Source: an uncultured Chlamydiae bacterium (GTDB lineage Bacteria; Chlamydiota; Chlamydiia; Chlamydiales; JAJFMB01). Taken from it: a DNA stretch of 64,000 nt. Every line of letters begins with the position of its first letter. Within the stretch, counting starts at the first letter, position 1. The DNA is taken from contig CAVOJR010000001.1 in the NCBI GenBank assembly GCA_963696295.1, positions 64,001-128,000 of the forward strand, in the 5' to 3' direction. Below are positions 54,334 through 54,692 of the stretch, piece after piece. The notes beneath the pieces are model-generated. The model was not told where the DNA came from and made no database searches. It was given only the letters and a program-made list of their open reading frames with translations. Made by a program: the position numbers and the translations under genes.

Positions 54334-54502
54334 ATCATCAAGGGAAAAAGCGCGACACTTTTTCCCGCCAAAAAATAATCCTCTTTCCCAAGAGTCTTAT
54401 TGGAAGAGTATCTGCCAACCAGCCAATAAAACCCCTGAAGACAAAACATCACCATTATAAAAAAAGACAAACTCATTTTATTATTCCTTCATAAAGCCAA
54501 AT

Positions 54503-54531
54503 GAAAAACGACAGCACAAAGCATTGCGCCG
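54503..54531 (-). terminator. Candidate attenuator hairpin between the leader ORF and the symporter start
   Basis: mRNA CGGCGCAA-UGCU-UUGUGCUG followed by UCGUUUUUC. Confidence 0.5.
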
Positions 54532-54587
54532 ATTAGTTTCTCGTAGCTTGATTCAAATATTTATAAAAAAAAAATTAGGGTGCGGAA

Positions 54588-54692
54588 TTACCGCGCATGA
54601 TGGCAATGATGATGCCGATGGGAAGAAGGGAAAAGGATGGAATTATTTTGTGATTGACAACACAATCTCTTAAAGCTGCTTGTGGTGTTCAT
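54588..54692 (-). CDS. His-rich leader peptide MNTTSSFKRLCCQSQNNSILFPSSHRHHHCHHAR
   Basis: Own translation; 6 CAT codons in the last 10 sense codons; ends 111 nt upstream of the symporter start. Confidence 0.75.
   Translation of the reverse strand: MNTTSSFKRLCCQSQNNSILFPSSHRHHHCHHAR

Follow-up and report, generated by a model that had tools for sequence, protein, structure and literature searches.

Hairpin-based histidine attenuators head the his operons of proteobacteria and of some Firmicutes, as well as the lysQ permease gene of Lactococcus (PMC9413887, PMC2965389 and PMC4833913, in their accessible portions). The hisL leader and the leaders of the Bacillus cereus group, of Clostridioides and of lysQ are similar in several respects to the chlamydial leader described here. 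They have a short upstream open reading frame (uORF), His codons in a terminal run near the stop, and a position before a his operon or a histidine transporter gene (the same portions of PMC9413887, PMC4833913 and PMC2965389). The histidine transporters named there, YuiF, HisXYZ and LysQ, are not SSS proteins (PMC9413887 and PMC4833913, accessible portions). There are also clear differences, however, between hisL and the chlamydial leaders. The latter are longer (median of 36 codons), have a pyrimidine tail of Ser, Phe and Leu codons, target an SSS transporter and belong to the phylum Chlamydiota, and they show no conserved terminator or antiterminator and no Rfam match. Vitreschak et al. in 2004 reportedly predicted histidine transporters from His leaders.

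In tnaC, speFL, cruR and mgtL/corL, a stalled ribosome is placed over a C-rich, G-poor tract, which lies inside the uORF in cruR, and the chlamydial leader resembles them in this arrangement (PMC12360218, as far as its accessible text goes). Masking of a rut site by the ribosome is described there for tnaC and speFL and, within the uORF, for cruR. The stall in these systems is caused by the nascent peptide or by a metal or Pro-codon signal, whereas in the chlamydial leader it is proposed to arise from a shortage of charged tRNA at codons within the tract, and conservation does not extend to the sequence of the peptide. The poly-Cys leaders of actinobacteria share with the chlamydial leader a terminal run of cognate codons, a poly-pyrimidine stretch nearby and the absence of a terminator hairpin (PMC1262725, accessible part). 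These leaders free a sequestered ribosome-binding site through a stable duplex (10.1101/834739, accessible part), and no such specific duplex is found for the His leaders. A trpL candidate in C. felis is similar in having a Ser/Phe/Pro tail before tandem Trp codons and no reported attenuator structure in the part of PMC3937554 that is accessible. The putative trpL of C. felis and C. trachomatis are unvalidated single cases, in contrast to the phylum-wide His leader. The accessible text of PMC7755916 states that C. trachomatis lacks TrpL-type attenuation, and also reports Rho polarity in this organism.

A full-text literature search, which included ncRNA screens (one with a Chlamydia genome), returned no chlamydial His leader and no SSS histidine importer in the text that it reached, and for chlamydiae the trpL candidates were the only leader peptides in it; subscription papers or supplements may hold one. 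The first-pass annotation of this DNA had contrasted a transporter leader with the attenuation established for biosynthetic operons. The leader does precede a transporter gene, but a His leader before a transporter had already been predicted for lysQ (PMC4833913, accessible part).

The leader and the interrupted transporter gene in the window

The window is a stretch of 64,000 nucleotides from an uncultured Chlamydiae bacterium. The leader, the transporter gene behind it and the downstream genes have the following features, given in the direction of transcription with the basis of each assignment.

54737..54765, (-) strand: putative sigma66-type promoter, TTGCTT-17 nt-TAAAAT, 36 nt 5' of the leader start (pattern scan, consensus match only)
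54700..54703, (-) strand: SD-like AAGG of the leader ORF (sequence)
54588..54692, (-) strand: His leader ORF of 34 codons (ORF call, and a design conserved in orthologous loci)
54598..54657, (-) strand: C-rich, G-poor tract within the ORF of the leader, a candidate rut site for the loading of Rho (60 nt with 21 C and 3 G)
54597..54620, (-) strand: predicted sensor, six CAT His codons within eight codons (sequence)
54582..54594, (-) strand: hairpin A, a 4-bp GC stem over the leader stop codon, possible pause hairpin (folding; not conserved)
54565..54574, (-) strand: U10 run, which begins 7 nt past the stem of hairpin A (sequence)
54503..54542, (-) strand: hairpin B, with its core at 54512-54531 and its U tract paired in the extended stem (folding; not conserved, not switchable in the model)
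54485..54490, (-) strand: SD of the symporter gene, GAAGGA (sequence)
54334..54476, (-) strand: first 47 codons of the SSS symporter gene, as a 5' fragment (matches the N-termini of orthologues)
53185..54333, (-) strand: IS5-family element of 1,149 bp (doubled terminal inverted repeats, transposase, target duplication)
51981..53183, (-) strand: 3' fragment of the SSS symporter gene, 400 codons from TM1 onward (PF00474)
51344..52039, (-) strand: downstream ORF, weakly GNAT-like, probably co-transcribed (blastp partner in locus L004)
50142..51275, (-) strand: ArgE-type M20 deacetylase gene, probably co-transcribed (TIGR01892 above cut-off)

The leader peptide ends in S-H-R-H-H-H-C-H-H-A-R-stop, and all six His codons are CAT. 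The 34-codon ORF with six terminal CAT codons, at 54692-54588 of the (-) strand, and the C/U-rich, rut-like tract are both as the first-pass annotation had described them. The 3.43-Mb genome has 65,054 ORFs of 8-45 aa (61,898 + 3,156), and none but the leader has at least six His in eight codons. The +1 frame was considered as the coding frame and rejected. It is Ile-rich, but there is no start codon ahead of the run, and the CAY triplets of the orthologous leaders stay in the His frame. The composition of the C-rich tract is matched by 3.7% of 679 gene-upstream regions in the same genome. Folding of the leader as a whole is only moderate (z = -1.8), with a folding energy of -6.5 kcal/mol for hairpin A. 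The promoter-like element has 8 of 12 consensus matches and was passed over by a separate promoter scan. A riboswitch or other known RNA family was rejected: no Rfam family reached the gathering score for the window leader or for 12 orthologous loci, and a model of the His leader was likewise unmatched. An imperfect palindrome, TGTGT-N6-TCACA, is located within the leader ORF (54647-54664), and we take it to be CRP-box-like.

The first-pass annotation had missed a break in the controlled gene. The symporter gene downstream of the leader is split after codon 47 by the IS5-family element. The reading frame of the 5' fragment continues into the element and reaches a stop at 54267. The element has the features of its family, with a DDE transposase (54210-53257, NF033579 match, E 5e-89), terminal inverted repeats (an outer 23-bp pair enclosing an inner 15-bp pair) and a 9-bp target duplication (53176-53184 and 54334-54342). 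No second full copy was found in the genome, only a 157-bp fragment. Reads from two DNA sequencing runs covered the element only in part. In the 3' fragment, a Lys is present in TM1 at the position of a Gln that is kept in 167 of 170 orthologues. A general decay of the transporter was rejected, since there are only two departures at 72 conserved columns, equal to the median of the orthologues, and for the same reason the damage looks recent. The split transporter is likely non-functional, to judge from its sequence, and the window leader is therefore likely to be a recent remnant or now to gate the transposase and the two downstream genes. The transposase is oriented the same way as the leader, and shortage of histidine could push read-through into it. 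The window copy is in effect a natural loss, with the transporter cut by an insertion and the leader still intact.

The GNAT-like ORF has no noteworthy Pfam match, and its blastp partner in L004 matches Acetyltransf_1 weakly (E 8e-4). The order of this ORF and the ArgE deacetylase gene is also found in L004 and in genome G022. A gene for a Vut_1 transporter (queuosine-precursor uptake family) is present in the window at 60671-61192.

Conservation of the leader and its link to histidine

Across the phylum, 131 of 350 genomes encode an orthologue of the SSS transporter. The analysis covered 220 loci, made up of the genome loci, 79 of 80 metagenome loci and the window. A start was assigned in 215 of them, at least 300 nt of upstream DNA was available for 209, and 177 were non-redundant; duplicates and the distant or truncated matches L026, L027, L029 and L030 were left out. 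A leader was defined as a uORF with at least four His among its last 14 codons. By this definition a His uORF precedes 79 of the 177 orthologues, and 64 of these have at least five His, compared to 0.4 and 0.1, respectively, in dinucleotide-shuffled sequences. The opposite strand of the same 177 loci has none. No residue other than His is enriched more than about two-fold over shuffles in the 177 loci. An excess of Ile at uORF ends (33, compared to 15.9) is read as the shadow of the CAT repeats. The His leader is real, and far beyond chance. The first-pass annotation had named the absence of His-codon runs before orthologous symporters as grounds for dropping its claim, and the runs are there. 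No His uORF was found in L028 or in the three of L026, L027, L029 and L030 that have upstream DNA.

The 79 leaders have 19-50 codons (median 36), and 76 of them start with ATG. The stop is located 0-4 codons past the last His in all 79, and the leader ends 37-280 nt before the transporter gene. CAY triplets are concentrated in the His frame (451, compared to 17 and 16 in the other two frames), and outside the His run the peptides have no common sequence. An SD-like 4-mer is found ahead of 63 of the 79 starts, as a raw count with no shuffle baseline. Promoter-like elements are located within 90 nt 5' of 39 of the 79 leaders, where shuffles give 6.5; in 5 of 79 such an element lies in the spacer.

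In 11 further loci the leader lies 334-2107 nt upstream of the transporter gene; in most of them it opens an operon that includes a racemase-family gene. The remainder of the 177 comprises 15 loci of family f36 and 72 without a leader, many of them operon-internal or with only 700 nt of upstream sequence fetched. In f36, 19 of 24 loci (L210-L233) keep a conserved ATG uORF with 1-4 His, and these comprise all 19 genomes of g38, a genus with small genomes. This uORF ends in a motif like FSLSFR(Y/H)SGRYLH, 75-110 nt 5' of the transporter gene. The leaders are scattered over the whole midpoint-rooted tree, and because of this spread the leader appears to be an old element that has frequently been lost. 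The named homologues among the best 120 listed all carry chlamydial names, and a search of the genome contigs for related loci gave two.

Chlamydiae appear, from their gene content, to be nearly all histidine auxotrophs. HisD is found in 5 of the 350 chlamydial genomes, and not in the window genome. Four of the five matches belong to full his operons (L237:10499, L238:3257, L239:3299 and L240:3384, in genomes G130, G278, G274 and G293), and in each of these four operons a leader built in the same way lies 90-147 nt ahead of purH-hisI-hisG. The fifth match is distant (G050:C20:11708-12706, 102 bits), and this genome also has an orthologue of the SSS transporter. The four his-operon genomes have no such orthologue (best match of 172 bits), and members of the same three genera do. 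This mutual absence is suggestive only; its chance is about 0.15 at the base rate of 131/350, and the genomes are kin and not independent.

The composition of the transporters also bears on the signal. His makes up 0.24% of the residues in 75 leader-bearing transporters, 36 of which have none, compared to 0.44% in 66 transporters with no adjacent leader and 1.49% in 88 hydrophobic proteins of the window genome. The three SSS paralogues of the window genome have 4-9 His each. Depletion of His is expected for a protein that is made under histidine shortage.

As in hisL-type systems, a uORF that can be translated carries cognate codons in a row, upstream of genes that are cognate in the his operons and, by the substrate predicted here, before the transporter. 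The leader very probably senses histidine, with a ribosome that would stall on the His codons during shortage and thereby raise downstream expression. Sensing of queuosine through NAU codons was considered and rejected, as codons for Tyr, Asn and Asp are not enriched. The proposal in the first-pass annotation that the leader controls an SSS transporter and predicts its substrate has gained from the comparison, as the leader is conserved before the orthologues and histidine is the likely signal and a probable substrate. Chlamydiae lack well-described amino-acid sensing, and a conserved gauge of histidine would supply one.

The proposed mechanism of attenuation

The most consistent feature of the leaders besides the His run is the composition of their 3' portion. 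The 45 nt before the stop have a C content of 0.33-0.37 and a G content of 0.07, and U is about 0.5 past the stop. Ser codons are TCT or TCC in 78% of cases, compared to 41% in the transporter genes. With the peptides held fixed, the leaders have 369 G where 525 are expected (minimum of 482 in 500 resamplings) and 1190 occurrences of YC where 950 are expected. G is below its own expectation in 74 of 79 leaders, and the segment with the best C-over-G value ends at the leader stop in 71. The leader end folds more weakly than -5 kcal/mol in 31 of 79, and one his-operon leader, that of G278, has no fold at all. Rho is encoded in all 150 genomes checked. What is known of uORF-gated Rho termination is matched here by a C-rich, G-poor and weakly structured tract near the position of the presumed stall, together with an encoded Rho.

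Ribosome-gated, Rho-dependent attenuation is accordingly given a modest preference among the mechanisms, because the conserved feature is the G-poor C/U tract in the leader's own last 20 codons and not the hairpins. During histidine shortage, the ribosome would stall on the His codons, mask the rut-like tract over its 3' half, and block Rho. With histidine in plenty, it would arrive at the stop 0-4 codons further on and leave, and the bared tract would load Rho, which would end the transcript in the U-rich spacer. Low levels of charged tRNA-His would in this way switch on the predicted histidine importer. Rho acting on the C/U tract, which the first-pass annotation had held in reserve, is the best fit to the comparative data. 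If Rho is the effector, this would be a minimal attenuator that has no RNA switch and in which the codons double as the rut site.

Several observations do not fit this mechanism well. His codons are CAT in 88% of cases in the leaders, compared to 59% genome-wide in the window genome, and a rut role does not explain this bias, as CAC would be more C-rich. The synonymous avoidance of G is weak in the window copy (7 G, where 8.0 are expected). A C/U tract doubles as a generic anti-SD sequence, and the 72 loci of 177 with no visible leader count against the model as well, though many are operon-internal or have only 700 nt fetched. Moreover, the mycobacterial poly-Cys leaders, for which Rho had been proposed on like grounds (PMC1262725), proved to be translational (10.1101/834739, both in their accessible portions).

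The CAT bias would be accounted for by translational attenuation, in which the C/U tract and the CAU codons would sequester the first gene's SD and AUG by pairing, a stalled ribosome would free both, and Rho polarity would be secondary. Besides the poly-Cys leaders (10.1101/834739, in the portion available), toiL is a precedent. In the minimum free energy structure of the window leader, CCUUC is paired with the GAAGG of the SD. The probability in cis that the start region is paired to the leader is above 0.3 in 57 of 79 cases, and for ten leaders the duplex reaches -16 to -19 kcal/mol. The leaders pair better with their own start regions than with shuffles of these (-9.97 compared to -7.3 kcal/mol, p 6e-9), and 14 of 79 are in the best tenth. 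On the other hand, the same cognate value of -9.97 is hardly different from the values for start regions taken from elsewhere, which are -9.37 for other leaders (p 0.38), -9.59 for leaderless orthologues and -9.84 for random genes of the window genome, a comparison that has low power if any SD suffices. Coevolution of an anti-SD was rejected, as these comparisons give no signal. A modelled stalled ribosome changes the accessibility of the SD only from 0.40 to 0.42, with a change above 0.2 in 2 of 79, the gaps between leader and transporter range from 37 to 280 nt, and one his-operon leader pairs at only -3.9. Translational attenuation is rather doubtful as the general mechanism, and occlusion of the SD may be used by a minority of the leaders.

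The hairpins noted in the first-pass annotation offer another possibility, that hairpin A and its U run act as an intrinsic terminator or pause signal at the leader end and are blocked by the ribosome itself, with no antiterminator. Hairpin A has a probability of 0.97 in the free RNA and of at most 0.12 once the ribosome has reached or passed His codon 29. The value for a ribosome on the stop codon is as low, and the hairpin is hidden equally there. In one subclade, the last codons are spanned by a hairpin of 4-6 bp, with a U-rich stretch behind it. The core of the hairpin is kept in about 31 of 34 motif matches, with one pair being A-U in 21, G-U in 8 and G-C in 4, and it is possibly a pause signal. 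Terminator-like stems in the interval from the last His codons to the start are found in 12, 6 and 3 of 79 loci at -4, -6 and -8 kcal/mol (0-4, 0-1 and 0-1 in shuffles). This excess at -4 kcal/mol favors a terminator and speaks against Rho, but 67 of 79 loci have no stem even at that threshold, and 76 have none at -8. The 42-nt spacer behind the G002 leader is free of hairpins. In the window copy, the GCGG/CCGC hairpin does overlap the stop and is followed by ten U as had been noted, but the U run starts 7 nt past the 4-bp stem, and a terminator scan was negative here. The second hairpin, before the symporter's ribosome-binding site, was called terminator-like (2 calls in 1 kb, with 1.0 expected), but the extended stem takes up its U tract by pairing. 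Hairpin B forms with a probability of 0.71-0.92 at all modelled positions of the ribosome. A terminator or pause hairpin of this kind is an improbable explanation for the leaders as a group.

A conserved switch made up of hairpins A and B was rejected, as neither hairpin is conserved, nor is any terminator. Folding of the window copy at the modelled ribosome positions gave no antiterminator selected by the ribosome, in agreement with the earlier failure to see one by eye. The hisL-type hairpin switch that the first-pass annotation had proposed thus fails, because hairpin B is independent of the ribosome and hairpin A is hidden in both states. The leader appears to act in the manner of an amino-acid attenuator, but it falls outside the hisL hairpin class.

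A role for the His-rich peptide as a sensor that binds metal, or as a small protein in its own right, instead of a gauge of tRNA-His is very improbable. A cluster of His and Cys is located at the C-terminus of the leader, and the copper-sensing CruR is a precedent for a metal-related uORF with an internal rut site (PMC12360218, accessible part). However, the same leader heads all four his operons, the peptides share nothing beyond the His run, the target protein is depleted in His, and Leu- and Val-rich leaders of like design are found before amino-acid transporters.

Transporter cargo and related leaders

The transporter is a member of PF00474, with a match to the SSS profile and a LeuT-type fold. 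Its predicted structure (pLDDT 91) has a TM-score of 0.83 to human CHT1, with 17-19% identity. CHT1, PutP, PanF and SiaT are likewise SSS (SLC5) transporters, but the chlamydial protein is below the putP and panF cut-offs (16/515 and 43/328 bits, scored on the 400-aa fragment). The closest solved relative carries choline. The Trp in the ATWVGGG motif of CHT1 is a Gln in the chlamydial transporter, and the modelled structure neither names nor excludes histidine as the cargo. A 'proline permease' in PMC5723314, which we take to be CPn0486, may be an orthologue.

With the leader as a guide, this SSS clade probably imports L-histidine or a close derivative. It is unlikely that the cargo is instead a source of histidine (D-His, N-acetyl-His or a His peptide) that is processed by co-regulated enzymes, with the leader still sensing histidine. 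In 8 loci an Asp/Glu-racemase-family gene separates the leader from the transporter gene, and at least 2 others have one 3' of the transporter. An M15 dipeptidase gene is downstream in 2 loci, and the GNAT-like gene and ArgE deacetylase gene are downstream in the window locus and L004. In most leader-bearing loci, however, the transporter gene stands alone or beside unrelated genes. With L-histidine or a close derivative as the preferred cargo, the leader names a candidate histidine importer among transporters that are annotated only as SSS.

Racemase-family genes in operons with a His leader are found in L063, L073-L076, L078, L085, L135, L017 and L142, often together with a gene for a protein of 300-410 aa. 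In the 6 loci where the latter gene is located between leader and transporter, it has no Pfam match and only sub-threshold Atlas matches.

On a broader and tentative reading, Chlamydiota may run phylum-wide amino-acid attenuators that have no terminator and whose Rho loading site consists of the sensor codons together with the synonymous codons beside them. The transporter would then be the first SSS histidine importer, the leader would have jumped between transporter and his operon, the uORF of g38 would be a degenerate form, and there would be Leu and Val counterparts. Such leaders could help to assign the substrates of other chlamydial transporters.

A Leu-rich, G-poor leader is located before an NSS (PF00209) transporter gene in the window genome, at C1:2793841(-), and similar uORFs that end in Leu are seen by eye in about 10 of 20 orthologous loci, as a raw count with no shuffle baseline. 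A Val-rich leader is located before a BrnQ (PF05525) transporter gene at C1:1069708(+) of the same genome, with uORFs ending in Val/Ile in about 5 of 30 loci, also by eye. In addition, small ORFs with pyrimidine-rich tails and runs of Ala or Arg are present at C1:1977652(+), C1:3099227(-) and C1:1667804(+), before genes of unknown function.
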